DNA from: a virus
Taxonomy: Duplodnaviria > Caudoviricetes
DNA length: 35,401 nt
Reading direction: 5' to 3' (one strand)
Virus record (IMG/VR): IMGVR_UViG_3300012665_000299
Coordinates: 1-35,401 of that record
Shown: in pieces, positions 8,019-35,400 of the stretch
Layout of the letters: each line of letters begins with the position of its first letter
How positions within the stretch are numbered: the first letter of the stretch is position 1
Made by a program: the position numbers and the translations under genes
Notes under the pieces: generated by a model
Told to the model about the DNA's origin: nothing
What the model saw: the letters and a program-made list of their open reading frames with translations, nothing else
The model's database searches: none

Positions 8019-10325
8019 ATGGCAAGTACATACAGCAACCTTAAAATCCAGTTGATGGCCACAGGCGAGAACAGCGCCACTTGGGGCAACGTCACCAACA
8101 CCAACATGGGCACCGCGCTTGAGGAAGCTATTGCTGGAACGGCTGATGTCCCTTTCTCCAATGCCAACGTCACACTTACGTTGACGGATGCTAACACCAC
8201 CCAGACGGCGCGTAACATGCGCCTTAACCTTACCGGCACTGCCACTGCGGGCTACAACCTCATCGTCCCTGCGATTGAGAAGGCGTATATAGTCAACAAC
8301 GGTACTGACGGCACGATCACGGTTAAGAACGCGACAGGCACCGGTATCGCCATACCTGCGGGTAAGACTACATGGGTTTTCAATAATGCGACAAACGTCG
8401 TTGATGTCGTCACCCACCTTACGTCGTTATCGGTAGCAGGGGCACTGTCGGTAACAGGGACACTGCAAGGTACCGCGGCGAATTTCTCAGGTACCGTTAA
8501 TACGGGCGGGCAGATTGTAACGGGGACAGGAGTTAGTACAGGCGACTGCGCCATTGAGATTGGCGGAAACCGTACCGGTTCAGGCCCTGCGTACATTGAT
8601 TTTCATAGTGTTACTGGCAGCGATTTTGAAGCGCGCTTCATGCGCTACGCTGGCGCTAATGGTGGTTTGGATGTCATCAATAACGGTACTGGGGGCATGG
8701 TGCTTTCGGTCGAAGGTGCGGGGGATATGGTCCTCAGAACCACGGCTACAGAGCGTGTGCGTATTCTTAGTAGCGGCAACGTCGGGATCGGTGCAAGTTC
8801 TCCCGGCGCAAAGCTAGACGTAGCTGGCAATATTCTGCTTTCTTCCGCAACGCCTACCATCACGTTTAACAGCGGGGGCGGCGCTATCAGCAATGCTGGT
8901 GCTGCAAATACGATTGCCATATCTACTTCTAGTACTGAACGGTTCCGCATCGCAGCGGCTGGACAATGGGGTCTGGGTGGTGCAAACTATGGTACGTCTG
9001 GGCAGGTACTTACTTCACAAGGTTCTGGCTCTGCACCTATCTGGACTAATGCGGGTACTGTTACTTCAGTAGCTATGTCTGTCCCCGGGTTTCTTTCCAT
9101 CGCGGGTTCGCCAATCACGGGTTCTGGCACACTTGCAGTTACCTATTCTGGCACTGCACTACCTATTGCAAACGGTGGTACTGGGTCCACTGCCACTGCT
9201 TATTGCAGCCTCACGGCTAACGTATCGGGTACGCTCCCTGTCGGCAACGGTGGTACTGGCGCGGCAACCCTCACAGGCGTCCTAAAGGGTAACGGTACAG
9301 CGGCATTTACTGCCGCTACCGCAGGTACTGATTTCGTCGCACCCGGCGGCGCACTTGGTACGCCTTCGTCTGGTAACTTAGCGAACTGCACATTCCCAAC
9401 GCTCAACCAGAATACGACTGGTAGCTCTGGTTCTTGCACAGGTAACGCAGCTACGGCTACATCAGCTACTACGGCTGGGTCTGCTACTACGGCTGGGTCT
9501 GTCACCAACGCGGTTACATTCAACAACGGTGGCGCAGGCGCGGGTTCAGGCACTACCTACAACGGCTCGGCTGCACAGACGATCAGCTACAACACCATAG
9601 GTGCATACGCTGCTTCCAACCCATCTGGATACACCAACAACACCGGCACGGTCACTTCGGTTGCTACCACAGGCACAGTCAATGGTATCACACTCACCGG
9701 TACAGTTACTTCGTCGGGCACGCTTACTCTTGGTGGCGCGCTCTCTGGTGTCAGCCTTACCTCTCAGGTCTCTGGCACACTCCCTATCGGCAACGGTGGT
9801 ACTAACGCCACTACGGCAGCAGGTGCTCTCACTTCGCTCGGTGCGTATCCAGCGACTAACCCCAACGGCTACACATCAAACGTAGGTACGGTCACTTCGG
9901 TTGCTACTTCAGGTTCGGCTAACGGACTTACCCTTTCGGGCGGTACAATCACTACAACCGGCACAATTACTCTTGGCGGCTCAGTCACTTCGGTTGCATC
10001 AGGCGCAACCATCGACAGTGTAGTCATTGGCTACAGGAACATCCCACGTTCAACGACAACCACCACTGCTGTCGTAGCAGACGTTGGTAAATGTATCGCT
10101 GTCTCGGCTGGTATCACGATCCCGAACAGCACGTTTGCTGCGGGTGACGCGGTTTCGATTTATAACGACAGTGCCTCGGCAATCACAATTACGGCAGGTG
10201 TTGCAACGCTCCGCCAAGCTGGCACAGCGAATACCGGCAACCGCACACTGGCTGCGCGGGGTATGGCCACCATCTGGTTCAACAGCGCAACCGAAGCTAT
10301 AATTTCAGGTGCAGGAGTAACTTAA
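8019..10325 (+). CDS. Second tail fibre protein with N-terminal virion-attachment domain
   Basis: N-terminus MASTYSNLKIQLMATGENSATWG is typical of fibre anchors in aquatic podoviruses. Contains the ERVRILSSGNVGIG repeat, GTLPxGNGGT and GTVTSVA repeats, and a C-terminal domain ending ISGAGVT. Confidence 0.85.
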   Translation: MASTYSNLKIQLMATGENSATWGNVTNTNMGTALEEAIAGTADVPFSNANVTLTLTDANTTQTARNMRLNLTGTATAGYNLIVPAIEKAYIVNNGTDGTITVKNATGTGIAIPAGKTTWVFNNATNVVDVVTHLTSLSVAGALSVTGTLQGTAANFSGTVNTGGQIVTGTGVSTGDCAIEIGGNRTGSGPAYIDFHSVTGSDFEARFMRYAGANGGLDVINNGTGGMVLSVEGAGDMVLRTTATERVRILSSGNVGIGASSPGAKLDVAGNILLSSATPTITFNSGGGAISNAGAANTIAISTSSTERFRIAAAGQWGLGGANYGTSGQVLTSQGSGSAPIWTNAGTVTSVAMSVPGFLSIAGSPITGSGTLAVTYSGTALPIANGGTGSTATAYCSLTANVSGTLPVGNGGTGAATLTGVLKGNGTAAFTAATAGTDFVAPGGALGTPSSGNLANCTFPTLNQNTTGSSGSCTGNAATATSATTAGSATTAGSVTNAVTFNNGGAGAGSGTTYNGSAAQTISYNTIGAYAASNPSGYTNNTGTVTSVATTGTVNGITLTGTVTSSGTLTLGGALSGVSLTSQVSGTLPIGNGGTNATTAAGALTSLGAYPATNPNGYTSNVGTVTSVATSGSANGLTLSGGTITTTGTITLGGSVTSVASGATIDSVVIGYRNIPRSTTTTTAVVADVGKCIAVSAGITIPNSTFAAGDAVSIYNDSASAITITAGVATLRQAGTANTGNRTLAARGMATIWFNSATEAIISGAGVT

Positions 10326-21400: not shown

Positions 21401-22738
21401 GCAATCAAGCAGCTACGTGGTTTGGACGGTATGGACCCTAAAGCCCGCGCAGGAAGCCTATTAACTGGTCTGAACACTTGGGTTGACGGGCTTGCCGACA
21501 TCATGGATATGGCTGCACGTTTTGCTACGTATCGTGCTGCTACTGACTTAGGTATAAACGGAACTGCTGCCGCTGACCTTGCGCTTGACTCGTCGCTGAA
21601 CCTTACCCGTCGCGGTGAGATGGCGCGTGGCATCGACCTTGTCATTCCGTTCTTCGGTGCCAGTGTCGAAGGTAGCCGTAAGACGCTACGTATTCTGTCG
21701 AACCCTAGGACTGCGGTGAAAATCATCGGTGGTCTTATCGCCTATGGTGCGATGGAGTCTGTGTGGAATGCCATGCAGAGTGGCGACAGCGACGATGACG
21801 GGCAGGAAGATTATCTTGACCTCGACCAAGGTGCTAGCCTGCGTATGTCTCGCGCTACGTTGTATTACGGTAGCGGCCCAGACGACTACATCAAGGTGCC
21901 AATCGGCCAGATGTTGGGCTACTTTAAGTTCTTCGGGAATAAGATTGGCGACGTAATGGCTGGTGCCAGTACAACAGGAGAGGCAACCAAGGGTCTCGTA
22001 CCCGGCTTCTTCAGCTTGATGTCTCCGCTGCGCATCCCAAGCGGTGACCTTTCCAGCTTTGCTGGTGCTATTACGCCACTGGTGGGTAAGCCGTTTGTCA
22101 ACGCCGCGTTCAACAAAAACTTCTTCGGGTCGCCTATCTATACCGAGTCGTTTCCCGGCGGTGCGCCTAAATCCGAGCTTGGCCGTCCTAGTACTGCCGA
22201 GCCGTGGAAGGAAGTCGCCAAGGCTGTCAACTACGCTACGGGTGGTTCGGAAGCTGTCAGCGGCACTGTGGATTTCCAGCCTGAAGTGTATCGCTACTTC
22301 ATTGAGAGCTACTTCGGTGGGCCTTACCAGTTGGCAAAGCAGATGGTGGGCCTCAAGGAAGCCGAGGGTATGTCGGACGTCCCGGGCATTAAAAGCTTTG
22401 TTGGTACTGGCGCGCAGTATGCACCACAGACCAAGTACTTCGAAAACACCGAAACCACACGCCAGATCATGAACCGCCTGAGCAAATTGACGCCAGAGCA
22501 GCAAATGGCACAAGGTGAGCGGTACTTCTTGGATACTGACCCCCGCGTCATAGAAGCGTACAAAGCTGTGGAAGCCAGCCTCGACCGTATCGGTAAAGAC
22601 CAGAAAGAAACCTTCAGGCTCAATCCGGACATGTCCGGTAAGGAAAAACAGGCGGTTCTCGACCATTACCGCGCTGAGAAAAACAAGTATTATAGCGCGT
22701 TTAACGCTGTCTATAACGCAGCTAAGAAGGGCGAATAA
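18467..22738 (+). CDS. Large internal virion protein (1423 aa), LPD38-like C-terminal region
   Basis: Last and largest late gene. C-terminal LNLTRRGE...PFFGASVEG...YIKVPIG...NKNFFGSPIY resembles large polyvalent protein domains of phage ejection proteins. Confidence 0.65.
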   Translation: MPIYQMTGKDGNTYQITGPAGLDAKAVQAEILKRAPQAGVPKKENAGFFGSLFEGAQTSGLADEAAAYAANQNDETRRALIKAGESKYRQVGFGEGENFEAFKQLAGGSLGQLAAPVAAGLVGSLATPVTGLAAASAVSGAQYTSQNLLRQAQEQERAIAEGKKPEDTSVGKAILAATGQTALDLAGGRVFSGIAKAFPFMRPLLGNAGGRAAQNAGEVLADAAENGTIKFAKGIAYGVGKGVAFEVPQEVAQQGLERWQAGMSLTDKEAQSEYGQAAIGALLLGGSVGGVFGAISSRNREAAPEEEVEPEAPEPNITPTTPVEREDVLARLTDVAGTDLSRGATAAIEALERRVSNDLSINTPESLAETRAYIVSQEDQIAAGQFPEDTADPLVRALGEAKLMVEEAAPAAPVEEAAPAAPVEEAAPAAQEGETDAGGVGAATAPIGDELGTSVPPSREPGPTGDTAGRVEQPDSETVGVDSVPPVSPSVSPDAQPDTLARTEEIPAPTQAGQVSELKPAPNWMVNLVDKFGMSGPLDAWAKSTLGYEVLPEQLGTESKLKMAASKQAGQERLLQRNYFNPIVETAAKLKVDIGDLGMYLWARGAADRNRIVAEQNVDFPEGGSGLTTAQAAETMQRFRDEGLLPKLNQLARKADAIVDFTLNEKVRAGLMTTEEATQLRETQPYYMPLKGFASNGDMLTADIGEDAHSPDRRAEAARALRTSVPTGSINEYRKAFGRGSMPFHPLFNLFQDAEQAVRRNITNEAIKPVLKTFQANPSAFEGIMNVYTDANPKKVMMGRDIPGGRFEPVDMKQEYYGNQSKYYLVKDDGVAHYIEFNDKGVGADLNRMFANMNPKDMEGAMQQLANVNNFLKGMLTYKNPLYLTFVAPFRDVSDAVATAMLRQNTKGDAAFGKNLAAKTFFYAINPTTWSTIGRFVFSKRAMNNETGRLLEAMIRDGGTPLQTRFLNTQEKADAANKAIKQLRGLDGMDPKARAGSLLTGLNTWVDGLADIMDMAARFATYRAATDLGINGTAAADLALDSSLNLTRRGEMARGIDLVIPFFGASVEGSRKTLRILSNPRTAVKIIGGLIAYGAMESVWNAMQSGDSDDDGQEDYLDLDQGASLRMSRATLYYGSGPDDYIKVPIGQMLGYFKFFGNKIGDVMAGASTTGEATKGLVPGFFSLMSPLRIPSGDLSSFAGAITPLVGKPFVNAAFNKNFFGSPIYTESFPGGAPKSELGRPSTAEPWKEVAKAVNYATGGSEAVSGTVDFQPEVYRYFIESYFGGPYQLAKQMVGLKEAEGMSDVPGIKSFVGTGAQYAPQTKYFENTETTRQIMNRLSKLTPEQQMAQGERYFLDTDPRVIEAYKAVEASLDRIGKDQKETFRLNPDMSGKEKQAVLDHYRAEKNKYYSAFNAVYNAAKKGE
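19678..19752 (+). repeat. Perfect 27-bp tandem repeat (x2.8) encoding VEEAAPAAP
   Basis: GGTGGAAGAAGCTGCGCCAGCAGCACC at 19678 and 19705; third copy partial at 19732. Confidence 0.95.
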
Positions 22739-22771
22739 AAAAGCCCCCAACCGCGAACGACTGGGGGCTTT
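22737..22771 (-). terminator. Intrinsic terminator of minus-strand transcription (possibly weakly bidirectional)
   Basis: Minus-strand RNA AAGCCCCCAGUCG-UUCG-CGGUUGGGGGCUUUUUU: continuous stem with two G:U pairs, UUCG loop, U6 tail. On the plus strand the G:U pairs become A/C mismatches and the U-tract is only 3 nt. Confidence 0.9.
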
Positions 22772-22805
22772 GAGTGATGTAATGGAGGAAGGAGCAAACT
22801 TCCGC
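22737..22805 (-). ncRNA. Candidate ~70-nt multi-target antisense small RNA
   Basis: GCGGAAGUUUGCUCCUUCCUCCAUUACAUCACUCAAAGCCCCCAGUCGUUCGCGGUUGGGGGCUUUUUU. Flanked by a promoter-like element and a terminator; 22789-22800 is complementary to five RBSs; 22771-22784 is complementary to the primase start region. Confidence 0.7.
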
Positions 22806-22809
22806 AGCC

Positions 22810-22845
22810 TGTATACTCACATTCGCCAGACTCGTAAACCCCTTA
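22810..22845 (-). promoter_or_regulatory. Putative promoter of the sRNA, TAAGGGGTTTA-N19-TATACA
   Basis: TTTACG (22838-22833), 17-nt spacer, TATACA (22815-22810); same motif as 13294-13329; overlaps the 3' end of CDS 22817..23011. Confidence 0.5.
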
Positions 22846-23011
22846 TCCCATCTTCTATGGTCATATATATCAACACCTTGACCTTCAGACGGTTGGTGAC
22901 CACTAGCAGTTGTGCTTTGGCACGGGCGTAGTCGAGGCACGGGAAGAAAACGGAGGTCCCCTTTTTGAACCTCCGCCAGTTTAATTCATAGGTTACGCCC
23001 TCAATCAACAT
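22817..23011 (-). CDS. Small basic protein (64 aa), probably nucleic-acid binding
   Basis: Start re-assigned to MLIEGV, overlapping the primase stop. The GTSVFFP...GLRVWR pattern is seen in small phage DNA-binding proteins. Confidence 0.65.
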   Translation of the reverse strand: MLIEGVTYELNWRRFKKGTSVFFPCLDYARAKAQLLVVTNRLKVKVLIYMTIEDGIRGLRVWRM

Positions 23012-25832
23012 CGACCTTTTCAGTCTCTTCGTATTGCGAAGTATCCACGAAATCGTCGTCATCAACCTTGAACCACAGGCAGTGGATTGGGTCACCGCTC
23101 ACCGCAGTTCCCTTGGACAAGCGGACACCACCCTTCTTGATGAGGCGTCCTTCCGTCTCCAGCTTGGCAATCGTGTCGTTGTAGTTAATCTGGAACTTCA
23201 CGCAGTAGTCCTTGAACGACTTAGCGATGATGTACATGCGCTTGGTATCTGGCTCAATCCGCACCAGCAACTCACCGCGTGGTTCGCGCTTTGGCAGCGC
23301 TTGCATATTGGTCCGCCTGTCAGCTTCACCATTAACCACAAGGATGTGCTGCATGTGGCGGTACAGATAGTCAGCAACAACCTGACGTACGCTGTCCACG
23401 GGAGCTATAATGTTCCTACGTAGGTCGTTAATCATCCCGCAGGAGTAGTGGTAGATACGGTCCATATCCCAATCCATGAGGCCGCAGTTGGTAGCCGTTA
23501 AACCACCTGCTATATTGCTGGCGACAGTCGCAGACCAGAAGCGCTCCTTAGGTTCAAGCTGGAGTTCGCGGTCAATCTTAAGCTGCAAAGCGTCAGCCAT
23601 GCGCTGGGTGCGCTCCATATTCTCAAGCACATAACGTATATAGATAGGACCGGCGTGGCCGTAGTTCTTGAATAAATCACGGTCGAACATCTGCTTGGCT
23701 TCCGTGGTGTTAAGCCCCGCGACCTTGTTGATTGGGTACTCAATCAGGCGCATCAGTTCGCCTTCTGGATTGTTCTTGATGACCGACAGCTTTTCCGCAA
23801 ACGAGGCATTTGATGTAGATACACTAATTGACTGCCACGTGGTGTTGTTCTCACGAAGCTCGTTGGTACCAGCCTGCATACGCTCCTTACCCTTACCGTT
23901 AGACAAGGCGTACAGGAACTCGGAATATTCTATCGGGGTCATGTTGGTCAGTTCGTCCATCGTCGGCGGGATATTGTTGAGAATACCCACCCACTGCAAA
24001 CGCCCATTGAGCGTGTCGTTCTGCTTCAAGCGCAGTTCCTTGGGGTGGCCGTAGACGCTATTCACCATATTAAGGATGGTGGTCTTACCAGTTCCGGAGT
24101 TAGCGTTGAACAGGTTGATGACCGCCCCTGTCTGGTCGAGGAACCGCAGCAGCGGTGACCCAAAGGCGCTGAGCGCCGCAAAGGCGTGGGGTTCCATTCC
24201 CGGCGTGTCATAAAGTGCCCAGATTTTCTTCCACTCTTCGAGCGACCCTACTGGCCCCATGAATTTAGCCAGTGGGCGTGTTGTCTTTGATGGCGGCGAA
24301 TGAGCCACACCATCGATATGGATTTCCTGACTGCCTATGATAAACTTGCTGCCGTTGTCGGCCCAGCCAAATTGTTGACGCATGATTTGCTCCTTGTCGC
24401 GGTATTGAATGTCTTTCATCATCAGCGAGATGAACTCCATCAGATGGGTAAATTTCTTCCCCATGCAAATGACACCTTTAGACGAGAGCGCTTTGCGAAG
24501 CTCTTCGGGGCTGGTGATTTTGAACAGGGGTATGTGGAACTCTTTGGTGTTGTTGTGCGGTAGATGTAGCCGGAACATCACGACGTTACCGTCGATGCTG
24601 TCGTCCATAATCTTGGTCGGGTACAAATCGAACTCGTAGACCAACGTAGGCTCTGCTTCTTCGGCATCCTTAGGTGGCTTCTTCCAGATACCGCCGCCTT
24701 CGCCACGGTAGAACGGGAAGGGGTACTTCGATATCACGTGGCTTTCGGTTACGCCGTTGATTGTTTCGACCACAACGTGGTCTTCTTCGGCTTCACGTGC
24801 TTTTTTGCCGAGGTCCTTAGGCCCCATGATAGTACCAAGATGCGGACAGCCCTCGCATAGCTCTGGGTTGACGCTCTTGAATTTAGCGCAGCTAGTCGCC
24901 TTTCGGATGGTAGCTACCTTCTTGTCTATGGTATCCGGCTCATAGTCTGGGTGACCCTTCGACATCATGTGGACTGCTGTGTCAGCATCCTCACACATAG
25001 CCGCCACGGACAGCGCATAGAACCACTCATAGTAGCCAATGGTAGCTTGGTTCTTATAGGCATGTAGAAGCTGGTTACACCCATCCCCCTTAGCCGTACG
25101 CTGCATGATTTGCTTGAAGTTGAAGCCGATACCATTGTGCCGTGCCAGTTCCCGTGGCGATGGCTGGTAGTCATCGTCAAAGATTGTCGGCTTCGTCTTG
25201 ACCCCAAAGATGGAGCGCATTTCCTCAAAGGAGATAGGCTTACCGACATGGATAAACTCGACCGGACGCGGCTCTTCCTGCTTATAGTTAAAGGTATTGG
25301 GCACACGCAAGATACGCGCCGCTTCAAACACCTTGTCATCCACGTAGAAGTTCTGGGTGCGGCACACTTCCTTAATGCGCTCTGCCACAGGCTCCCAGTC
25401 TCGACGGGATACTTCTTCCTCAAGAGGCCAGTAGGCATGGATGCCCCCTCCTGAGTTTACTAGCGTAGGGGGAGGAAGACCCACTGATCCGCAGAAAGTG
25501 CGAAGCGCCCCTAACCCAGTTTGTTGGTCTATGTACCCGTCCGGCCTACCAGTTTCCGCATTGATTTCGGCTTTGCTAGGGCCGCAGTCGATGTCTAACC
25601 AGAATGCCTTTAGGGCTTTTACGTTTTCCTTCGTCCGGTTTGCGCCGGTCTCATATTTAGCTACGCCAAAGAACACATTACGTTGCTGCTGCATAAACGT
25701 CTGGATGCACTCATCTGCTTCCTCGCGTGTGGCTACAAGCTCCTGTCTGACGTCCTTTGGCCCTTTGATACCTACGATTGCAAACCAGCCTGAGGCTGGC
25801 TGCACGAGGTCTAGGAGGTCTGGTTGCTGCAT
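23001..25832 (-). CDS. Primase-helicase (RepB/AEP-type primase + Cys cluster + DUF927-type helicase)
   Basis: WLDIDC, VNSGGGIHAYW and RILRVP primase motifs; SC...CEGCPH; QFGW; Walker A NSGTGKTT; Walker B MDE. Start is ATG 25832 or GTG 25844. Confidence 0.85.
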   Translation of the reverse strand: MQQPDLLDLVQPASGWFAIVGIKGPKDVRQELVATREEADECIQTFMQQQRNVFFGVAKYETGANRTKENVKALKAFWLDIDCGPSKAEINAETGRPDGYIDQQTGLGALRTFCGSVGLPPPTLVNSGGGIHAYWPLEEEVSRRDWEPVAERIKEVCRTQNFYVDDKVFEAARILRVPNTFNYKQEEPRPVEFIHVGKPISFEEMRSIFGVKTKPTIFDDDYQPSPRELARHNGIGFNFKQIMQRTAKGDGCNQLLHAYKNQATIGYYEWFYALSVAAMCEDADTAVHMMSKGHPDYEPDTIDKKVATIRKATSCAKFKSVNPELCEGCPHLGTIMGPKDLGKKAREAEEDHVVVETINGVTESHVISKYPFPFYRGEGGGIWKKPPKDAEEAEPTLVYEFDLYPTKIMDDSIDGNVVMFRLHLPHNNTKEFHIPLFKITSPEELRKALSSKGVICMGKKFTHLMEFISLMMKDIQYRDKEQIMRQQFGWADNGSKFIIGSQEIHIDGVAHSPPSKTTRPLAKFMGPVGSLEEWKKIWALYDTPGMEPHAFAALSAFGSPLLRFLDQTGAVINLFNANSGTGKTTILNMVNSVYGHPKELRLKQNDTLNGRLQWVGILNNIPPTMDELTNMTPIEYSEFLYALSNGKGKERMQAGTNELRENNTTWQSISVSTSNASFAEKLSVIKNNPEGELMRLIEYPINKVAGLNTTEAKQMFDRDLFKNYGHAGPIYIRYVLENMERTQRMADALQLKIDRELQLEPKERFWSATVASNIAGGLTATNCGLMDWDMDRIYHYSCGMINDLRRNIIAPVDSVRQVVADYLYRHMQHILVVNGEADRRTNMQALPKREPRGELLVRIEPDTKRMYIIAKSFKDYCVKFQINYNDTIAKLETEGRLIKKGGVRLSKGTAVSGDPIHCLWFKVDDDDFVDTSQYEETEKVDVD

Positions 25833-25843
25833 TACATCACTCA
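25830..25843 (-). promoter_or_regulatory. Primase translation-initiation region; 14-nt perfect target of the candidate sRNA
   Basis: mRNA UGAGUGAUGUAAUG is identical to + strand 22771-22784, so it is complementary to the minus-strand RNA from that locus. Confidence 0.7.
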
Positions 25844-25889
25844 CCGTCGCGGGGTATACCCGCCATATTATTAGTTGTGCCGACGATTA

Positions 25890-27484: not shown

Positions 27485-27496
27485 AGTTTGCTCCTT
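27485..27496 (-). promoter_or_regulatory. Conserved RBS motif AAGGAGCAAACT (sRNA target)
   Basis: Abuts ATG 27484; 12/12 complementary to sRNA seed 1. Confidence 0.8.
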
Positions 27497-27518
27497 AGGT
27501 AGTCGTTGCTACAAACCC

Positions 27519-27547
27519 CTCCTATTCCTTACGTTATACAATGTCAA
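27519..27547 (-). promoter_or_regulatory. Putative sigma70-type promoter TTGACA-17-TAGGAG
   Basis: Perfect -35 at 27547-27542, 17-nt spacer, -10-like TAGGAG at 27524-27519; upstream of the SSB/primase sub-operon. Confidence 0.5.
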
Positions 27548-29078
27548 GTTCTTGATTGTATAGGTCGATAATTTTTAGGTGGTTTGCAATGTTGCCTTGC
27601 AGCATAGAGTACAGCCGCTCTTCCACTGGGCTTCCTTTGATATGCACAATGGTCATGGCGTTCTTCTGTCCTGCACGGTCGATACGGGCGTTTGCCTGTA
27701 GGTAGGTTTCCACGCTCGTCGTAGGCGCGTACCAGATAATGGTATCCGCTGCCGTAAGAGTAAGTCCATGCGATGCAGCCTTAGGCTGGATAAGCAGGAC
27801 ACGGGGGTTCGGGTCTGTCTGGAAGCGGTTCACAATCTCTGTGCGCTTGTTGACCGGAACCTTACCATTGATGACGTCGCAGGTTATCTTCTCCTTGTCC
27901 ATCAAGGCACGTAGTAGCTCAATGGTATGGGTGAACGGCACGAAGACCAGCACTTTGTTGCTGGCTTCCTCAATGACTTCCAACACCACCTTAAGGCGGT
28001 TGGATACGTCGAACTCTAGGACTTCTCCAGTATCCGTGTAGACTGCACCCCCGCTAATCTGAAGCAGCTTGTTGAGCTTGGTCGCTGCGTTTACCGCGCT
28101 GACCTCTTCACCTTGGGCTTCGAACAACATCTGGTTTTTAAGCTGGGCGTAGAACTTGCGCTGCTGCGGGGTGAGCGGCGCTTCGCGTTCGATGTGGGTT
28201 ACAGACGGTAGGTCGAGACAGTCCTTCTTCTCGAACCGGATAGCCGGTTGTAAAACTTTATGGACGATGGCGTCCGCACTGGGCCTCGGTGCCCATTTGA
28301 ACTGGGTCACCTTCATCATCACGCTGTCGCGGAACGCGCCGTAATACTTCGGACATCCCGGCCCTCCTGCCATACGGGCCAGCCCGTAAGCATCGATAGG
28401 GCTTTGTGCTGCTGGCGTACCAGTAAGCATCCACATCCGGGGATTAGTCTCACGCACAATCCGGTCTAGGATTTTCCAGCGGTTGGTCATGGGGTTCTTG
28501 TACGCGTTAGCTTCGTCAATCACGATAAGGTCGAAGCCACCCTTGGCGATGGCGTCCTTGACTACGGCCACACCATCGAAATTTATGATGACGAAGTCGG
28601 AACCTGCGTTGATGATCTTCTCACGCTGCTTAGCCGCCCCATGTGCCACGCTGCACGAACGGTGCATGGCGAACTTAAACAGGTCCTGCTGCCATGCGGA
28701 CTTCATGATGGATAGCGGACAAAGGACAAGGACGCGCTTCACGATGCCACGCTTCATAAGATAGTCTGCTGCCCAGATAACACTGGCGGTCTTGCCTGTG
28801 CCCTGCTCGTTGAAGCAGAAGGCGCGCCTACGCAGCGATAGGAATGACGCTGTGGTTTTCTGGTGGTCGAACGGCTTGAACTTACCCGTCCATTCGTAGG
28901 ACTTTAGGATAGGTGAGGGGACATTATCAAAGCCAAGGTCTGTTAGTATCTCAGCTTCGGTGTGTCCCCATTTGACAAGGACGCCTTCCTTAACGGCGGC
29001 GCTCTTATGTATATGGTCCGTGATGGCAGACGGGTCCTGAGCGTTGATGAGCAACGCCTTATTCTCGATGATTTCCAC
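27534..29078 (-). CDS. SNF2-family (SF2) helicase
   Basis: EQGTGKT, IVIDEAN, LTGTP, GLTLTAA and QANARIDRAGQ motifs; GTG start. Confidence 0.92.
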   Translation of the reverse strand: MEIIENKALLINAQDPSAITDHIHKSAAVKEGVLVKWGHTEAEILTDLGFDNVPSPILKSYEWTGKFKPFDHQKTTASFLSLRRRAFCFNEQGTGKTASVIWAADYLMKRGIVKRVLVLCPLSIMKSAWQQDLFKFAMHRSCSVAHGAAKQREKIINAGSDFVIINFDGVAVVKDAIAKGGFDLIVIDEANAYKNPMTNRWKILDRIVRETNPRMWMLTGTPAAQSPIDAYGLARMAGGPGCPKYYGAFRDSVMMKVTQFKWAPRPSADAIVHKVLQPAIRFEKKDCLDLPSVTHIEREAPLTPQQRKFYAQLKNQMLFEAQGEEVSAVNAATKLNKLLQISGGAVYTDTGEVLEFDVSNRLKVVLEVIEEASNKVLVFVPFTHTIELLRALMDKEKITCDVINGKVPVNKRTEIVNRFQTDPNPRVLLIQPKAASHGLTLTAADTIIWYAPTTSVETYLQANARIDRAGQKNAMTIVHIKGSPVEERLYSMLQGNIANHLKIIDLYNQELDIV

Positions 29079-29090
29079 AGTTTGCTCCTT
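29079..29090 (-). promoter_or_regulatory. Conserved RBS motif AAGGAGCAAACT (sRNA target)
   Basis: Abuts GTG 29078; 12/12 complementary to seed 1. Confidence 0.8.
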
Positions 29091-29098
29091 GCGGGGGG

Positions 29099-29383
29099 TT
29101 ACTTCTTTTTCTTGCGTTCCCGTGTGCTGGTTTCCGACACTAGGTTGCGCTTGCTGTCGCGCTTGAATGAGCGGTTGGCCGATGCGCTCTCGACGCGCAG
29201 TCCGGTCTTGTTATTACCGCCCTTATCGAATGCCTTTACGTGAGCAACGTCTTTACCGTCGCCCTTGCTGACTTTGCCAGCCTTCATCATCTTGGCACGG
29301 GCAGCGTTACGCGCAGCGCGGTTCTTCTTCTGCTCCGCTGTACCTTGGTACTTCGCGTACTCTGCCTTGTAATCTCTGGCCAT
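29099..29383 (-). CDS. Small basic HNH-like protein
   Basis: Start re-assigned to MARDYKAEY (TGATG overlap, GGAGG RBS). GDGKDVAH...GG...LRV...ANR is an HNH-like pattern. Confidence 0.65.
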   Translation of the reverse strand: MARDYKAEYAKYQGTAEQKKNRAARNAARAKMMKAGKVSKGDGKDVAHVKAFDKGGNNKTGLRVESASANRSFKRDSKRNLVSETSTRERKKKK

Positions 29384-30057
29384 CACCGCCTCCGTGGGGG
29401 TTTGTAATGTTCGCAACTTACCACAGGACACCACCCGCATAAAGGGCTTGTCTTGGCATTCCATACACCGTTCCCAATGGCGGCATCCAACTGGTCTAAC
29501 TGGTCATCGAACACGGAGAAGTATTGGTCCAGCTTCTCCCGTACGTGTACCTTCTTAGGGAACTCGTTGCTAACCACGAAGGCCAGCGCCGACTTAATCT
29601 TCTGCACCTCTGGGAAGTGTACGAAGATTGCCCCCGCCATAAGGTCAAGCTGCTTCATGTCCGCGTACTTGGCGCTCTTACCTGTCTTGTAGTCAATCAT
29701 GAAAGCCGTGTGGCCATCCACGATTAGCAAATCGACGATGCCGCGCCACCACACATCCTTAGCGAAGAAGGTGGTAGGCTCGTAGCCAGTATCCGTCTTG
29801 GCGACACCTAGCCGTAACTCGGTGTGCTTCGTGCCCTGCTTCGCAGCCAGTGGTTCCACGATGGGTCGCATGTAGGCAAACTTCTCAGGGATAGGTGTGC
29901 CATCCTTGATGAACAACTCGGCAGCTTCATGGACTGCGGTCCCATAGTCAGCAGCTTCCCCCGGAATATCCTTGACGTCCTTCGCCACCTTAAGGTGGTA
30001 ATACTTCTTCGGACATTGGTCGAAGGTCTTGATGCTGCTATAGGACCACGCTGTCAT
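29383..30057 (-). CDS. Cas4-like PD-(D/E)XK exonuclease
   Basis: WSYSS...CP, GTAVH, GIVDLL, IDYKTG, QL and CGWC...C (four-Cys Fe-S staple). Start taken as MTAWSYS. Confidence 0.88.
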   Translation of the reverse strand: MTAWSYSSIKTFDQCPKKYYHLKVAKDVKDIPGEAADYGTAVHEAAELFIKDGTPIPEKFAYMRPIVEPLAAKQGTKHTELRLGVAKTDTGYEPTTFFAKDVWWRGIVDLLIVDGHTAFMIDYKTGKSAKYADMKQLDLMAGAIFVHFPEVQKIKSALAFVVSNEFPKKVHVREKLDQYFSVFDDQLDQLDAAIGNGVWNAKTSPLCGWCPVVSCEHYKPPRRR

Positions 30058-30058
30058 G

Positions 30059-30637
30059 TTATCTGATTTTCCCTTGGAGACGGTCGGCCACCAACGTAGC
30101 ATATCCGGCAATGTCTAGCCAGCTATCTATATAGTGTGAGTCGCCGGTGATGATACGCGCAATCTTACTCGCTATCATATCAAGTGCTTCCTGATGGTCT
30201 GCTTGTAGGGTTACATTTTGTTCGTCTAGGGCGCTACGGATGACTTCTTTCATATCCTGCGCAAAAAGCGCTACGTTAATGAAGCTACCGTAAGTGGAAG
30301 CACGGGCATTAAGGATTGCGTCCACCTCTTGGGCAGACTTGGCCCCCTCGACTACGACATACTCACCGGCTTCGGCCTTAATAGCTTCCTCGCGGCGCTT
30401 CTGCCTACCCTGCGACAGGGAGAAGGCAAACTCCGGGGTTATGTTAGGGTATACGTTCGTGTCTACGCTAAGTATGGTTGTCTTAGGTTCCACCTCAGCT
30501 TCTACTCCCGCTTCCATCAGTTTCTTCAGCTTCCATGCGTAGTTGTAGCTTGCATCCATACGCTGGGTAACTTCCCTAGGCGAGTAGCCCTGCTTTAGTA
30601 GTTTCATGATTGCCTTTGCTTTAGCTGTCTTATTCAT
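30059..30637 (-). CDS. HTH + DUF6378-like domain protein
   Basis: N-terminal GYSPREVTQRMDASYNYAW HTH-like segment; C-terminal R..TYG.F...KIARI...DSWLDIAGYA signature. Confidence 0.7.
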   Translation of the reverse strand: MNKTAKAKAIMKLLKQGYSPREVTQRMDASYNYAWKLKKLMEAGVEAEVEPKTTILSVDTNVYPNITPEFAFSLSQGRQKRREEAIKAEAGEYVVVEGAKSAQEVDAILNARASTYGSFINVALFAQDMKEVIRSALDEQNVTLQADHQEALDMIASKIARIITGDSHYIDSWLDIAGYATLVADRLQGKIR

Positions 30638-30640
30638 TTC

Positions 30641-30651
30641 GTTTGCTCCTT
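30641..30651 (-). promoter_or_regulatory. Conserved RBS motif AAGGAGCAAAC (sRNA target)
   Basis: 3 nt before ATG 30637; 11 contiguous complementary bases; overlaps the upstream stop codon. Confidence 0.8.
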
Positions 30652-31405
30652 ACTTTAGGTTCCCGCCCGATTTCAAAATGTCCCCGTTGTAGACGTAGGT
30701 CCCAACATGGTCCAACTTCACGAAGGGGTGGGCGTATATCTTCCCCCCGTGCTTGCGAAACAGTTCGCAAAAGTGGTAGTCCTCCGATAGCAGTGCGCCA
30801 GTATGGTCAATGCTGGTAGCGAAAAACTCGTGCGTCAGTGGCTTGTCGTACTCACCATCTGGTTTGATGAATGAGGATGTCCGGTAGGTCGGCACATGTG
30901 GCGCAAGGTGGTCGAACACCCCCCGCCTGATAAGCATAAAGCCTGTACCACCATGCCGCACTTCTATTGTACCGCGCTCGTCAGTCTCGACATGTGCTTC
31001 ATCCACCATGTTGAACACGAACGCACCTGCATGGTCTTCAAGGTCTTCTTTGCCAGCGGCGGCTGCGCGTTTGACGCTATCCCAGTTCACTTCTTTCTTA
31101 GGGTAGATACCGCACACGATGTCATCGTCCACGGCCAACAGGTGAGCGATAGCCTGCCCGTCGAAACCGATGTCGGCGTCGATGAACATTAGGTAGTCAC
31201 AGTCTGTTGCTAAGAAAGTACGAGCAAGCTCGTTACGTGCTCGCGTAATTAAACTCTCGTTCGTCATGTGTGCCCAGCGTACCTCGACACCTAGTTCACG
31301 CATCGTAGCCATAGTGTTGAGCAAACCCATCACATACATGCCCGTGCACATGCCCCCGTACATGGGGGTGGCAATCATAATCTTAGGACGTTTCTCTTTG
31401 GTCAT
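30650..31405 (-). CDS. GT-A fold glycosyltransferase-like protein
   Basis: IMIATP, ITRARN, LMFIDAD (DxD), GTGFMLI, SEDYHFC and LDHVG motifs. Confidence 0.8.
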   Translation of the reverse strand: MTKEKRPKIMIATPMYGGMCTGMYVMGLLNTMATMRELGVEVRWAHMTNESLITRARNELARTFLATDCDYLMFIDADIGFDGQAIAHLLAVDDDIVCGIYPKKEVNWDSVKRAAAAGKEDLEDHAGAFVFNMVDEAHVETDERGTIEVRHGGTGFMLIRRGVFDHLAPHVPTYRTSSFIKPDGEYDKPLTHEFFATSIDHTGALLSEDYHFCELFRKHGGKIYAHPFVKLDHVGTYVYNGDILKSGGNLK

Positions 31406-31556
31406 TGCTCTGTTCTTTCTTTAATCTTCTGTATCGACACTCCACGGCAGCAACCGTTAGGCCCATTTGCTCCGCCATATACGCTGGCCTTAGGCCATGC
31501 TGATAATACTCCAGTAACTGTGCGTCTTTCTCAGGTGTCCATACTCGTTTAGGCAT
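31383..31556 (-). CDS. GcrA/Myb-like HTH mini-protein (57 aa), absent from the ORF track
   Basis: MPKRVWTPEKDAQLLEYYQHGLRPAYMAEQMGLTVAAVECRYRRLKKEQSNDQRETS; TAATG overlap with the upstream gene; AAGGA RBS. Confidence 0.7.
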   Translation of the reverse strand: MPKRVWTPEKDAQLLEYYQHGLRPAYMAEQMGLTVAAVECRYRRLKKEQSNDQRETS

Positions 31557-31765
31557 TATTTTTCCTTGGTGAACAGTTCGACTTCGCTACGTCTGGAAGT
31601 CCCTTGGTTTGTCCGGCGTGTACCAAGTTTAAGAAGTTCCCGTGACAGGCGGGTATTTTCATCCCGTAACTGGTGGATACGGATTGTGTTTACGATGGTA
31701 GCGGCAACGGCAGCGAGGGAACCGCCAATAAAAAACCCAACGGTAAAACTTAATGGGTCGAACAT
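31556..31765 (-). CDS. Small membrane-anchored coiled-coil protein
   Basis: N-terminal hydrophobic helix followed by LRDENTRLSRELLKL; AAAGGA RBS. Confidence 0.65.
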   Translation of the reverse strand: MFDPLSFTVGFFIGGSLAAVAATIVNTIRIHQLRDENTRLSRELLKLGTRRTNQGTSRRSEVELFTKEK

Positions 31766-31769
31766 AATC

Positions 31770-32372
31770 TTATCCTTTCTTACGTACTACTAATTGATAT
31801 CCAACGTGGACAATCTCTGCTGTCTCGCCAAAGATGTTGGTGAAAGCGTCGATTGCAATCTTAGGGCGGTGCAGCGCATCGCGGGGGTTGCCCCACATAT
31901 AATCATCAAACACCATCAAACCTTCAAGCTTGAGCAACGGCCAAGCCATACACGCATCGGTTAGCACATCCTTAGCTACATGGCTTCCGTCGATGTAGAT
32001 GAAGTCGAAATATGCGTGGTCTTCGGGGGTTTCCACCAACCAGTGCGCAAGGTGCTGGGTAGATGTACCTTTAAGTTTGTGTATGTAGACTACGTTTTCT
32101 TCCTCTGCGATGTTGGTATTGTGGTCAAACCGCTTCTCCACCTCGCTCATGTTCTCTTCGCCGTGTTCTTCGCCGCCCATCCATGTGTCGATACAGTAAA
32201 TATCCGCAGGGGTTTCGCCAGAAATCATATTCTCAGCAATCCAGACGGTGCTACGCCCTTCGAACGAACCGATTTCAAGGAAGTTCTGCCGCGCAGGTAG
32301 CATAGGGATAAGCTGCGTCCAGACTTCCGGTGCCCAGTTGAACCAGTCTTTTGTGTATTGGTACTCGCTCAT
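31770..32372 (-). CDS. Class I SAM-dependent methyltransferase (Methyltransf_24-like)
   Basis: LEIGSFEGRS, CIDTW, FDFIYIDGSH and GLMVFDDY motifs. Confidence 0.88.
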   Translation of the reverse strand: MSEYQYTKDWFNWAPEVWTQLIPMLPARQNFLEIGSFEGRSTVWIAENMISGETPADIYCIDTWMGGEEHGEENMSEVEKRFDHNTNIAEEENVVYIHKLKGTSTQHLAHWLVETPEDHAYFDFIYIDGSHVAKDVLTDACMAWPLLKLEGLMVFDDYMWGNPRDALHRPKIAIDAFTNIFGETAEIVHVGYQLVVRKKG

Positions 32373-32785
32373 TTTAATACCTTCCTTATTGAATTGAGTA
32401 CGCCAGATGAAACATCTAGCTTCGTACTTGGTGACTTCGTACCGACACCGACCATCTTATCGAGGTCATAGTCGTAAGCTTGTTTCGTAAGCGTGAGTGA
32501 CTTGGACAGGTTACGCTCATACTCATACTCTTCCCGTTCCGTGCGGCGGCGTTCGGGGCCGTTAAGTAGTTCATCCAGTACCTCTCCGTGGAGTTCGTCC
32601 ATTAAGATACCCCGCAGCTTCACGGTTATCGCAGCCTTGTCAGCCTCGCTTCCGTGGTCCTGTATTATGTCTATGTGGTGGGACCAGCGTTGGTGGAATA
32701 TCCCTTCCCCAATCCTAAACTCTTCGGGATGGCTCTCCATCCGTGCGACCAGTAGTTTGACTACATCATGTGGCTCACCCGCCAT
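32369..32785 (-). CDS. Hypothetical protein
   Basis: Start re-assigned to MAGEPH behind AAGGAGCAAGCT; overlaps both neighbouring genes. Confidence 0.7.
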   Translation of the reverse strand: MAGEPHDVVKLLVARMESHPEEFRIGEGIFHQRWSHHIDIIQDHGSEADKAAITVKLRGILMDELHGEVLDELLNGPERRRTEREEYEYERNLSKSLTLTKQAYDYDLDKMVGVGTKSPSTKLDVSSGVLNSIRKVLK

Positions 32786-34592
32786 AGCTTGCTCCTTTCT
32801 TGCTTTCACAGTTTAGCGGCAGTGCCGTTGCCCACTTCGGGCGTATACGCATACAGGACTCAACGAACCGCTGTGCCTCCTCTGCTTTTTCAGTAGGGGC
32901 GATTGCTCCTACTGCGTCATGGACAGTCATCACCACGCGCAGGCGTCGTGCAACCATCAACATCTGTTCCCCGATAATGATACGGGCTAGGGCTTGACAG
33001 ATATTCTCGACAGCCTTCCCGCCATAGATGCGGGTTGGTATAACTGCGCGGCCCTTCTTCTGGTCGTAGACCATCTCGGACTTACCATCGCGCATTATGT
33101 AACGCAGGTTCGGGTATTTAAGGCTCAGCCCATTAGGCAGCTTGATACCGTCCGCTCCGCACACCGTCAGCACACCGTCCAGACCTATCGGTGCTGTCTG
33201 GTTGTTGGCTATAGCCTCCAGTGCCTCCCCAGTCTGACGCCATAGAAGTGGGATCATGGGATAGGTCTCTCTGTATACGCTAATAATACGTTTACATTCA
33301 TCCGCGTGCATATCAAAACCAAAGGTCTTTAGCTGCGCTTGGAACTTAACCGCACCCATCCCATAACCACAGCCAAGGATGGTGGTCTTACCCACGAACC
33401 GCTGGTCATCCGTCACCTCATCGACAGGCACACCGTAGATGGAGCTTGCCATAATCTTATAGACGTCCTCACCTTGGTCAAACGCAGCGACAAGGTCATC
33501 CTGTCCAGCCAGCCAAGCCAAGGTCCGCGCTTCAATCTGGCTGCTATCGCAGTCGATAAAGGTATAACCCTCTGGTGCCAGCATGGCCTTCTTCAATGGC
33601 GACTTGCGCGGTAGGTTCTGAAGATTAACCTTGTCGTCACCACCCCAGCGTCCGGTATGCGCAGCATAATAGCGTAAGGGGACGGGTAATGTCCCTCGGT
33701 CTGCAATCTTAATGAACCGCTCGGTGCGTGTCTCTTCCAACGTAGACTTAACGCCTAGCCGCGCAGCCACAATGGCTTGCACCACGGCGTTCTTATGCTC
33801 CAGTAATGCCTTAAACTCTTCGTCGGTCTTGGCAAAGGCATAGGTCTCTTTGCCTGTAGCGGGACTAATCTTCATCGGCGGCTCGACGCCTAAGCTGCGT
33901 AGCGTCTCGGCCAACTGCGGGTTGGACATCAGGTTCTCTTTAGTGATGAGCGACTTACCCAGTAGGTCATTCTTCATGCGCTTCACCCTGCCCAAGTGTT
34001 CCTCTAGGGCTTGCTTGTTTATGGTCAGCACTGGCTCGGTGAACATACGGATAGTCAGGTCAATCAACCGGAACTCAACCGCCGGAAAGCCCACAGCAAT
34101 ACGCTGGAACAGGTCATAGGTCAGGTCCGCATCATTGCAGCAGTATGTGCCGTAACGAGCCATCTCCTCCGGCGTGAAGTCCACGCGCATCTTACCCAGT
34201 GCGTTGATAACCTCATCGCCCTTCTTACCCAGCCCGTAGCGTTCGGCTGCTTTGGCTAGGCTGTTACCCGCATCAGGCCCATCAATGGCGCGAAGCATGG
34301 AGAGCGTGTCCACAATCCGCTTGGGTCGGATGTCGAAGTGCCAGTTAAGGATAGCCATATCGAACACAGCGTTGTGCGCCACAGCGATAGCGTTGTCCCA
34401 GTCAAACTGGTCAAGCCACACCTTGGTCTTCGCCTTAGTCCCGCTGAACCATTGAGCTTCCCCGGAGTCAACCTTTACTGATACGCCGATAACCTCAAAG
34501 ATTTCATCGCGGATATACTCCTCCGTTGTCACCTTGGACAGCGAGTAGCTTCGGTCGTAGTAGGTCTCGAAGTCGATTGTGATTACGTGCAT
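32775..34592 (-). CDS. polA: Family A DNA polymerase with 3'-5' exonuclease domain
   Basis: Exo motifs DFETY, AHNAVFD, YCCND; polymerase motif A DSSQIEAR, motif B RFVGKTTILGCGYG, motif C VHD. Confidence 0.95.
   Translation of the reverse strand: MHVITIDFETYYDRSYSLSKVTTEEYIRDEIFEVIGVSVKVDSGEAQWFSGTKAKTKVWLDQFDWDNAIAVAHNAVFDMAILNWHFDIRPKRIVDTLSMLRAIDGPDAGNSLAKAAERYGLGKKGDEVINALGKMRVDFTPEEMARYGTYCCNDADLTYDLFQRIAVGFPAVEFRLIDLTIRMFTEPVLTINKQALEEHLGRVKRMKNDLLGKSLITKENLMSNPQLAETLRSLGVEPPMKISPATGKETYAFAKTDEEFKALLEHKNAVVQAIVAARLGVKSTLEETRTERFIKIADRGTLPVPLRYYAAHTGRWGGDDKVNLQNLPRKSPLKKAMLAPEGYTFIDCDSSQIEARTLAWLAGQDDLVAAFDQGEDVYKIMASSIYGVPVDEVTDDQRFVGKTTILGCGYGMGAVKFQAQLKTFGFDMHADECKRIISVYRETYPMIPLLWRQTGEALEAIANNQTAPIGLDGVLTVCGADGIKLPNGLSLKYPNLRYIMRDGKSEMVYDQKKGRAVIPTRIYGGKAVENICQALARIIIGEQMLMVARRLRVVMTVHDAVGAIAPTEKAEEAQRFVESCMRIRPKWATALPLNCESKKGASYGG
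32786..32797 (-). promoter_or_regulatory. RBS motif variant AAGGAGCAAGCT (sRNA target, one G:U)
   Basis: Embedded in the last codons of the polymerase gene; abuts ATG 32785. Confidence 0.7.
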
Positions 34593-34909
34593 GGCGATAC
34601 CTTATATATACCTGCGCGCATTACCCGTTGGTTACGTCCGGAAGGGCCGGTGCGTTTGTCAGGGCCACATGTGATAAAACGCTTGCGTTCCAACGCAGAA
34701 AAACGGGCGGTCACACTTGAGTATGGAAGGTAGGGAAACTTCGCCAGCAAGTCTGCGGCGATACACCCGCTATGCCCTGTCGCTTCGATGGCTTCATGCA
34801 CCATCTTCTCCAGCTTTGTAGTGTCTACACTATGTGCAGCTTCTGCGCTCGTGTCAGGGTCTTCGCTCCGATACAACTCTATCGGGTCAGTTCCATATAT
34901 GTCGGTCAT
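34583..34909 (-). CDS. Winged-helix-like DNA-binding protein
   Basis: DPDTSAEAA...SVTARFSALERKRFI...SGRNQRV pattern; start MTDIYG with AAGGA upstream. Confidence 0.65.
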   Translation of the reverse strand: MTDIYGTDPIELYRSEDPDTSAEAAHSVDTTKLEKMVHEAIEATGHSGCIAADLLAKFPYLPYSSVTARFSALERKRFITCGPDKRTGPSGRNQRVMRAGIYKVSPCT

Positions 34910-34974
34910 TGGTCGCAATCCTTTTTTCCTTCAGCCAATCGGGCTATAATCCAGTCGATGATACGGCGTGTCAT
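34906..34974 (-). CDS. 22-aa mini-ORF MTRRIIDWIIARLAEGKKDCDQ
   Basis: ATGA overlaps at both ends; GGAG upstream. Confidence 0.45.
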   Translation of the reverse strand: MTRRIIDWIIARLAEGKKDCDQ

Positions 34975-35288
34975 GCCGCTTCTCCCATGATAGTTCCCTT
35001 AAGTTTGCGCACGATGTCGCGCACCATATCCCAGTTGTCCTCGTTGGCCACGACAGCCACCCCACCGCTGCGGCGGATGTGTTCAATCTCGCGCACCTGC
35101 AAAGCAGTCAGCTTGCCACCGCCTGCCTTGCACTCAATGGCGAGGAAGTGTCCGTTTACACATGCTATGATATCAGGAACGCCGCTGCGTCCGTAACCGT
35201 GCGTTGCGGGGAAGAAGTAGTAGACCTCCTCTGACTTGAGGATGGACACGACCTTATCCTTGACGACTTTCTCAGGTGTTTTAGCCAT
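34971..35288 (-). CDS. VRR-NUC domain nuclease (probable Holliday junction resolvase)
   Basis: PEKVV, GVPDII, AIECKA and LTALQ...I...GG motifs. Confidence 0.88.
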   Translation of the reverse strand: MAKTPEKVVKDKVVSILKSEEVYYFFPATHGYGRSGVPDIIACVNGHFLAIECKAGGGKLTALQVREIEHIRRSGGVAVVANEDNWDMVRDIVRKLKGTIMGEAA

Positions 35289-35400
35289 TGATTTGCTCCT
35301 TGGCTTCCATGAAGGCTTCGATAAACGCAGGGTATGTCACGGCACTCCCGTCCTTTACCATCATCTTGGGTTCGGGCGGTAAACCCTCATCCTCTGGGGC
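35281..35400 (-). CDS. 3' end of a hypothetical protein (truncated by window edge)
   Basis: Open frame ...APEDEGLPPEPKMMVKDGSAVTYPAFIEAFMEAKEQING*, overlapping the VRR-NUC start. Confidence 0.55.
   Translation of the reverse strand, partial: APEDEGLPPEPKMMVKDGSAVTYPAFIEAFMEAKEQING
35291..35301 (-). promoter_or_regulatory. RBS motif variant AAGGAGCAAAT (sRNA target, one G:U)
   Basis: Embedded in the upstream CDS; 2 nt before ATG 35288. Confidence 0.7.

Follow-up and report, generated by a model that had tools for sequence, protein, structure and literature searches.

Why should unrelated early genes of one phage begin behind the same extended ribosome-binding site (RBS), and what would read that sequence? 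The question is raised by a 35,401-nucleotide stretch of DNA from an uncultured freshwater phage (Duplodnaviria; Caudoviricetes), IMG/VR record IMGVR_UViG_3300012665_000299, which we analyzed in full (the whole 35.4-kb virus record, 56% complete) and refer to as the window. Five minus-strand genes in the window start behind a conserved element, here called the tag (AAGGAGCAAAC), and the end of the early operon holds a predicted small RNA (sRNA) whose hairpin loop carries the complement of the tag (seed 1). Among related phages, a change in the loop goes along with a change in the tag, and therefore one RNA likely shuts the tagged genes off together. We think it probable that the window encodes a trans-acting phage sRNA repressing its own early regulon, with early-to-late timing as its probable role.

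A shared tag at early gene starts

Late genes occupy the plus strand of the window up to 22738, and early genes run on the minus strand from 35288 down to 22817. At a maximum of one mismatch, the tag was matched seven times, compared to a mean of 0.61 in shuffled sequences (0 of 100 shuffles reached seven), so that a count over the whole window bore out the preliminary description of this DNA, which had reported a shared extended RBS motif. The matches comprise five start-site tags, one copy inside the primase gene, and one inverted copy. On recheck of the sequence, the five start-site tags lie on the minus strand where they had been reported, directly before real starts (Table 1), and all five starts are ones that homologues use too. 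Two tags are intergenic, one runs across a TAA stop codon, and two lie inside upstream coding sequences in different frames (GGA GCA AGC in the polymerase gene and AAG GAG CAA in the other upstream open reading frame [ORF]), again as described. The sixth same-strand copy, in the primase gene, had been missed; it could mark an internal start, in part of the family only. Here the exact tag and its in-frame ATG read KEQIM, a form found in 7 loci, most relatives having a KAEIM-type sequence, and a shorter DUF927/helicase product may result. The only copy found in opposite orientation (22789-22799) lies in the RNA locus, as had been claimed, and we ruled it out as the RBS of a plus-strand ORF, there being no start downstream.

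The preliminary description had seen no such motif before late genes. GGAGCAA was indeed absent from all 14 gene starts listed for the late strand in the window, but two late genes (3625 and 10325, plus strand) bear a related sequence, AGGAGTAAC. Before the ATG of two late genes (3610-3625 and 10310-10325, plus strand) we also observed CAGGAGTAAC, which could pair with seed 1 through one G.U pair and one bulge. The tagged set had been called replication-module genes. Its early placement stands, but the polymerase, SSB-like, exonuclease, and HTH starts in the window have no tag, and therefore "early genes" fits better. Small hairpins were present directly upstream of the primase start (25849-25863) and overlapping the helicase tag (29084-29099), where they may set RBS accessibility. 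A partial tag, GGAGCAAA, precedes an internal ATG of a 57-amino-acid (aa) D5-like HTH protein (PHROG 323; 31383-31556, minus strand), which we take to resemble GcrA-type regulators.

The tagged set extends beyond the window. In four near-complete relatives (58 to 64 kb), the early strand had 8, 7, 9, and 8 copies of AGGAGCAAA and the opposite strand 1, 2, 1, and 1, compared to 0 to 1 for its reversed control. The pattern GGAGCA[AG][AG] preceded 10, 12, 13, and 13 early-strand starts in these genomes, so that early genes outside the window are tagged as well, compared to 1, 1, 0, and 2 late-strand starts. In genome G003, 87 ORFs were called, and the 11 with GGAGCAA all lie on the early strand, from the first early genes on. 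Across 53 main-class loci, we counted 195 sites in 511 kb of early sequence and 16 in 398 kb of late sequence (3.8 versus 0.4 per 10 kb); an equal frequency at late genes, which the preliminary description had named as the finding that would speak against it, was thus not seen in this class. When 33 windows were ranked by duplex energy, the six predicted targets took ranks 1, 2, 3, 5, 6, and 11.

The C terminus of DNA polymerase A (32775-32810, minus strand), which overlaps the next start, was observed to be shortened and recoded in tagged lineages. These mostly end in ESK-x-GASYGG-stop, coded in part by GGA GCA AG, and the others in ESG-x-G-x-SYG-x-C; the tag therefore appears to be written into coding sequence.

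A predicted small RNA gene

Relatives were gathered by protein searches (helicase, primase C terminus, 64-aa ORF as anchor), with at most 80 loci taken from each. After merging, 151 loci included the small ORF plus 150 nucleotides (nt) of sequence past it, of which 131 came from protein searches and 115 were distinct; 88 loci from a seed-pattern scan, being selected on the seed, were left uncounted unless the contig was also in a protein search. A terminator-ended unit was found at the RNA locus in 101 of the 115 distinct relatives, with TTGCTCC in 62 and TCGCTCC in 8 of these units. The 14 relatives without a unit were mostly the most distant (primase, 36 to 46%), and one of them (L138) had the hairpin but failed the terminator rule. 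Of the 101 units, L301 was removed before the pairing analysis because its "terminator" lay 180 nt away, leaving 100 distinct RNAs.

In the window, a 15-nt linker separates the 5' hairpin from the terminator, and the whole unit folds with a z score of -4.0. The hairpin stems vary pairwise among relatives (GGAAG/CTTCC in 41; also GACAG/CTGTC, GCAAG/CTTGC, GAGAG/CTCTC, and others). Both partners had changed in four of the five stem pairs (14 cells; 0 of 500 shuffles) in an ungapped alignment of 33 of the 36 hairpin variants (three without a stem were omitted), it being important to note that relatedness inflates this shuffle control and that 6- or 8-nt loops fall out of register. The -35 hexamer lies on Gly-Leu-Arg codons, the Leu codon being TTA in 62 of 77 loci compared to 6.7% of 6177 primase Leu codons. 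The hairpin starts 28 to 30 nt past the -35 in 52 of 61 loci, and the RNA 5' end would therefore fall at the hairpin (median RNA length, 69 nt). Read on the early strand, terminator stems held 44 G.U pairs, compared to 2 in the late-strand reading; these and the U-tract counts are partly circular because the units were defined on the early strand, which detracts from their weight.

Based on the promoter-like element, the hairpin spacing, and the terminator G.U pairs, the unit is best read as an early-strand RNA gene, and it would seem to have a transcription unit of its own (promoter and intrinsic terminator), as the class of trans-acting base-pairing sRNAs requires. The element could otherwise be the 3' end of a long early mRNA, which folds back on its RBSs or is processed out. 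Its position on the early strand and its use of the operon's terminator would suit such cis pairing, but the promoter-like hexamers are conserved at a fixed distance, and one seed cannot cover at least 10 sites 5 to 35 kb upstream on one molecule. We consider cis pairing extremely unlikely.

The window had no Rfam match at gathering score, and the nine weak matches at E values up to 10 were terminator-driven. No poly-A metatranscriptome contig was found on 22300-23300, in a sample without bearing on expression. In one lineage (L125/L190, L112/L191), a second seed 1 copy (TTTGCTCCCTCT) lies in the terminator loop, and a CTCACTCAG terminator loop recurs in L013, L016, and L021; such terminator-loop copies are a possible third seed. 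Six loci (L231, L232, L240, L306, L320, and L321) have another pyrimidine-rich RNA (TGCCTCTCCTT-type) after the small ORF with few matching phage starts, and these RNAs may aim at host mRNAs.

Table 1. Positions of the tags, the predicted RNA, and related features (window coordinates unless another record is named)
Feature	Position	Strand	Remarks
Tag AAGGAGCAAACT	27485..27496	minus	RBS of Gam-like gene, ATG 27484; most conserved target
Tag	29079..29090	minus	RBS of SNF2 helicase gene, GTG 29078
Tag	30641..30651	minus	Spans upstream stop codon; RBS of DUF6378 gene, ATG 30637
Tag variant AAGGAGCAAGCT	32786..32797	minus	Last codons of DNA polymerase A; RBS of 138-aa ORF, ATG 32785
Tag variant AAGGAGCAAAT	35291..35301	minus	Within upstream coding sequence; RBS of VRR-NUC/Hjc gene, ATG 35288
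Sixth tag copy	24385..24395	minus	Within primase coding sequence, 2 nt before in-frame ATG 24383 (Met484)
Predicted small RNA, about 68 nt	22737..22804	minus	Ends placed by promoter spacing and U tract
5' hairpin GGAAG-UUUGCUC-CUUCC, 5 bp	22787..22803	minus	Holds seed 1 (22800-22789), complement of tag
Seed 2 CAUUACAUCACUCA	22771..22784	minus	Mostly single-stranded; complement of primase start
Intrinsic terminator (predicted)	22737..22768	minus	GC-rich stem, six U; adjoins stop of convergent late LPD38 gene
Promoter-like TTTACG-N17-TATACA	22810..22838	minus	-35 within last codons of 64-aa ORF
Second target, 14 nt	25830..25843	minus	RBS and ATG (25832) of primase-DUF927 gene; exact complement of seed 2
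64-aa ORF	22817..23011	minus	No known family; last early-operon gene, directly upstream of RNA
Adephagia SAS hairpin	JF704105, about 58,660-58,710 (L337:33662-33712)	mRNA strand	

Joint change of loop and tag

Pairing between each start and the RNA of its own phage was compared to pairing with the RNAs of the other phages. For the Gam-like start, the duplex energy was -23.6 kcal/mol with the phage's own RNA and -20.3 with the others (n = 77; 0 of 5000 permutations), and 70 of the 77 starts formed at least eight contiguous Watson-Crick pairs with their own RNA. The helicase (n = 61) and primase (n = 99) starts had a cognate advantage likewise; it was weak for VRR-NUC (P = 0.018) and borderline for the 138-aa ORF (P = 0.06).

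A FastTree primase tree was built from the 76 loci that combine a Gam start with a long match to the primase (midpoint rooted; deep nodes poorly supported). On this tree, the loop and the Gam-like tag change together in at least four lineages. Loop/tag pairs from separate lineages include UCGCUCC/GGAGCGA, UAGCUCC/GGAGCUA, GUUGCUCC/GGAGCAAC, and UUUUGCUCC/GGAGCAAAA (2 of 3). In one clade both were replaced, giving GUUACCUC/GAGGUA and, further upstream, UUGACUCC/GGAGUCAA. Insertions and deletions of single bases in loop or tag have their counterpart in the other, and where the loop is missing (four loci), the Gam-like gene has a plain RBS, GGAGA or GGAT.

The linker holds a second seed (seed 2); 15 of 99 relatives have it, and in these it pairs with the primase start over 8 to 17 nt. 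Its changes are matched on both sides (GATGTAATG, GATGCAATG, GATGTGATG, and GTGTGCC). Seed 2 is an add-on of some lineages, since the other 84 of the 99 have no such seed. In one locus, L173, the RNA has the seed 2 of one lineage and the primase start is that of another, which suggests recombination between the RNA gene and the primase.

As judged from the sequences, the seeds are complementary to distant targets and show compensatory change, as the sRNA class requires, and the comparative evidence supports a conserved feature that would act by RNA-RNA pairing. The preliminary description had proposed such pairing, and the proposal holds up on loop/tag compensation, stem covariation, seed 2, and promoter and terminator orientation, but its own argument, that the tag variants keep G:U pairs, is weak. 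Of 39 deviations at the homology-anchored starts of the Gam, helicase, and DUF6378 genes, 25 are wobble-compatible, yet these are transitions, and the count cannot separate RNA pairing from mutation bias because A>G and C>T are the commonest mutations. We rejected a DNA operator: the targets do not have the palindrome that surrounds the inverted copy, and they lie at a fixed distance from start codons.

The matched changes also bear on who reads the tag. A protein could do so (a translational repressor or a RegB-like nuclease), and the inverted copy would then be a late-strand decoy hairpin, GGAAG-GAGCAAA-CUUCC, made by read-through of the late operon. Joint change of tag and copy would follow from altered protein specificity, the plus-strand form of the hairpin folds equally well, and late-strand read-through is possible because the terminator has few U there (0 to 3 in 60 of 68). 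Moreover, the sites that T4 RegB targets in early mRNAs are 11 nt long and consist of GGA plus an A-rich part (PMC1702504). However, the promoter-like element, the U tract, and the G.U pairs indicate the early strand, a gene-specific seed 2 of 14 to 17 nt with matched changes needs base pairing, and single-base indels are mirrored on both sides. A RegB match was found in 0 of 5 genomes, in a search whose control matched nowhere either. We regard a protein reader as decidedly unlikely.

The tag could also be a strong host-adapted RBS (Shine-Dalgarno [SD] core plus A-rich spacer), with the hairpin being an anti-SD sRNA against host mRNAs. The core CUCCU is the generic anti-SD sequence, and many host mRNAs are addressed by bacterial alphaR8 sRNAs through a similar 10-mer (PMC12559287). 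Against this, the tag follows loop changes, highly expressed late genes have no tag, and a phage attacking host RBSs should avoid a perfect site on its own genes. Further, AAGGAGCAAAC had 1, 2, and 0 copies in three relative-bearing bacterial assemblies, which are perhaps not hosts. This explanation is very unlikely in our view; additional host targeting by the RNA is possible.

Points against, and a proposed mechanism

Several results weigh against an sRNA that represses tagged early genes. No cognate advantage was found for nine genes (P = 0.10 to 1.0), namely, those for SSB, HTH, exonuclease, DUF6378, polymerase, HNH, methyltransferase, and glycosyltransferase and the small ORF. In at least 7 of the 76 tree rows (L008, L191, L243, L278, L286, L304, and L314), the Gam tag departs from the seed beside the core, and 18 of the 100 units lack a loop of this kind and match few starts. 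Class B loci had no early excess by 9-mer count (1.63 versus 1.51 per 10 kb). In the window, the duplex energies of late starts 10325 and 4559 fall within the span seen for tagged genes; this measure alone is a weak discriminator. The strand of the RNA is not set by folding: hairpin 1 folds equally on the other strand (whole unit, -26.5 versus -26.0), and mean folding energy favors neither strand across relatives (50 of 100). Lastly, the timing and the direction of the effect are presumed by analogy.

With these points taken into account, we propose the following for the predicted RNA. Its gene closes the early operon, and transcription would be driven by a sigma-70-type promoter of its own and start at the hairpin. 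Pairing would nucleate in the loop UUUGCUC and extend into the stem to give a helix of 11 to 12 bp, which would cover the SD core and spacer of many early RBSs and so block their translation together; the linker seed 2 would serve for the primase start. With the SD core and spacer covered, repressed initiation is the simplest outcome, and repression of initiation is established for anti-SD sRNAs such as SisA (PMC12559287). RNA made from a host-type promoter would accumulate with time and with template or genome copy number, leading to early-gene shut-off. Such a build-up suits early shut-off in a phage without lysogeny genes. This early-to-late purpose is the most weakly inferred part of the proposal.

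The same RNA and the same pairing might instead serve dormancy or superinfection immunity, the seed variants being immunity types like those of c4. A resident phage, non-integrated or stalled, would then go on producing the RNA and so silence its own early genes and those of incoming kin. This alternative differs from an early-to-late switch in purpose alone, and its probability was judged separately. A host-type promoter independent of late transcription would suit it, as would lineage-specific seed/tag pairs, tags on the very first early genes, and the precedent of c4 in P1 and P7 (PMC12197685). However, searches for tyrosine integrase, serine recombinase, and ParA each found none in the four near-complete relatives (positive controls matched). 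Further, the commonest seed is common to phages at only about 45 to 50% primase identity and would therefore give poor immunity specificity. We consider an immunity or dormancy role unlikely.

Genome context

The late strand encodes tail fibre, lysis, and virion proteins and the LPD38 protein. The early strand encodes VRR-NUC/Hjc, DNA polymerase A, a methyltransferase, DUF6378, a PD-(D/E)XK nuclease, the SNF2 helicase, and the Gam-like protein, as well as the SSB-like (a label inferred from position and an acidic tail, with no family hit), HTH, and primase-DUF927 proteins and the 64-aa ORF. No close cultured relative was found, the best helicase identity being about 40%. Six bacterial assemblies bearing relatives were rejected as a guide to the host; they are from unrelated phyla and look mis-binned.

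Comparison with known systems

The main text of a 2025 review of phage sRNAs (c4, sar, OOP, aQ, VpdS, PreS, and others) describes none that addresses tagged early genes of its own phage (PMC12197685). Nor did the literature searched, which included few subscription papers and no supplements (e.g., the 38 function-less phage sRNAs in Table S1 of PMC12197685), yield a phage sRNA described as acting on several early RBSs of its own phage.

The c4 RNA of P1 and P7 is a phage-coded trans-acting RNA whose loop-exposed sequences pair near an RBS and block translation (PMC12197685). Its specificity differs between related phages, as do the seed/tag pairs here. However, c4 controls one operon (ant) of a temperate phage, whereas here 5 to 13 dispersed early genes would be addressed, with seed 2 for the primase. 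The targets here (Gam-like, helicase, DUF6378, VRR-NUC, and primase) are not antirepressor mRNAs, and no integrase was found in the four near-complete relatives. The c4 Rfam model gave no match at gathering score in the window and was not among the nine weak matches at E values up to 10.

The alphaR8 family (MmgR, SisA-D) consists of short RNAs with an anti-SD seed and an intrinsic terminator that repress many mRNAs, and its seed resembles the one here (UUUCCUCCCU versus UUUGCUCCUU). Unlike the predicted RNA, these are encoded by Alphaproteobacteria and have host targets, with the seed single-stranded after a weak hairpin, whereas here UUUGCUC lies in the loop (PMC12559287). The alphaR8 10-mer UUUCCUCCCU is absent here, and there was no Rfam match. 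With T4 RegB and S1, early mRNAs are likewise shut off by a phage-coded factor, at an 11-nt GGA plus A-rich site, but RegB is a protein nuclease (PMC1702504), whereas the predicted reader of the tag here is an RNA. In sum, the RNA belongs to no curated family and, as predicted from its sequence, would act like a multi-target anti-SD sRNA and like c4.

The closest likeness in layout is the SAS of cluster K mycobacteriophages, described by Pope et al. in 2011 as an asymmetric extended RBS tag with an AGGAG core and 11 to 19 copies before non-structural genes, plus a single reverse copy away from any start; an RNA or protein partner was left open (PMC3203893). Half of the SAS carry ESAS promoters (PMC3203893; PMC11373665). 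According to a 2024 paper on Adephagia, the role of SAS is still unknown, and late transcription initiates between genes 92 and 93 (PMC11373665). Both systems thus have a repeated extended RBS at non-structural genes and one reverse copy. The SAS 13-mer, GGGATAGGAGCCC, differs from the tag of this phage, and cluster K differs in host phylum and genome type; the likeness is one of layout, and we make no claim of sequence homology.

We found that the reverse SAS of Adephagia forms the 10-nt loop of a strong mRNA-strand hairpin (z score, -4.9) between genes 92 and 93, in a stretch that matches 141 Mycobacterium phage records. The SAS loop is kept with varied stems in 6 of 8 cluster K phages examined. 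In Hammy and Ekdilam, the loop is one base shorter with SAS unchanged, and the covariation predicted for these two was not found. Unlike the unit in our window, the Adephagia hairpin is long-stemmed, and the stretch read shows no U-tract terminator next to it.

Known phage sRNAs are directed at a single phage mRNA, at the opposite strand of a gene, or at genes of the host. We tentatively propose, at a confidence that falls a little short of even, that lytic phages can have an RNA-addressed regulon, in which dozens of unrelated early genes with a private RBS barcode, one that is written even into the recoded end of the DNA polymerase gene, are switched off by one 68-nt RNA with a loop that co-evolves with the barcode. 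An independently evolved likeness would then explain the cluster K SAS, and this protein-free early-to-late switch would be widespread and overlooked. If true, phage development would have a further layer of control, one that works without a regulator protein and covers 5 to 13 of the phage's own early genes, and the seed/tag pairs would provide natural orthogonal pairs for translational control. The reader of the cluster K SAS, a question since 2011, would be directly testable in cultured phages.

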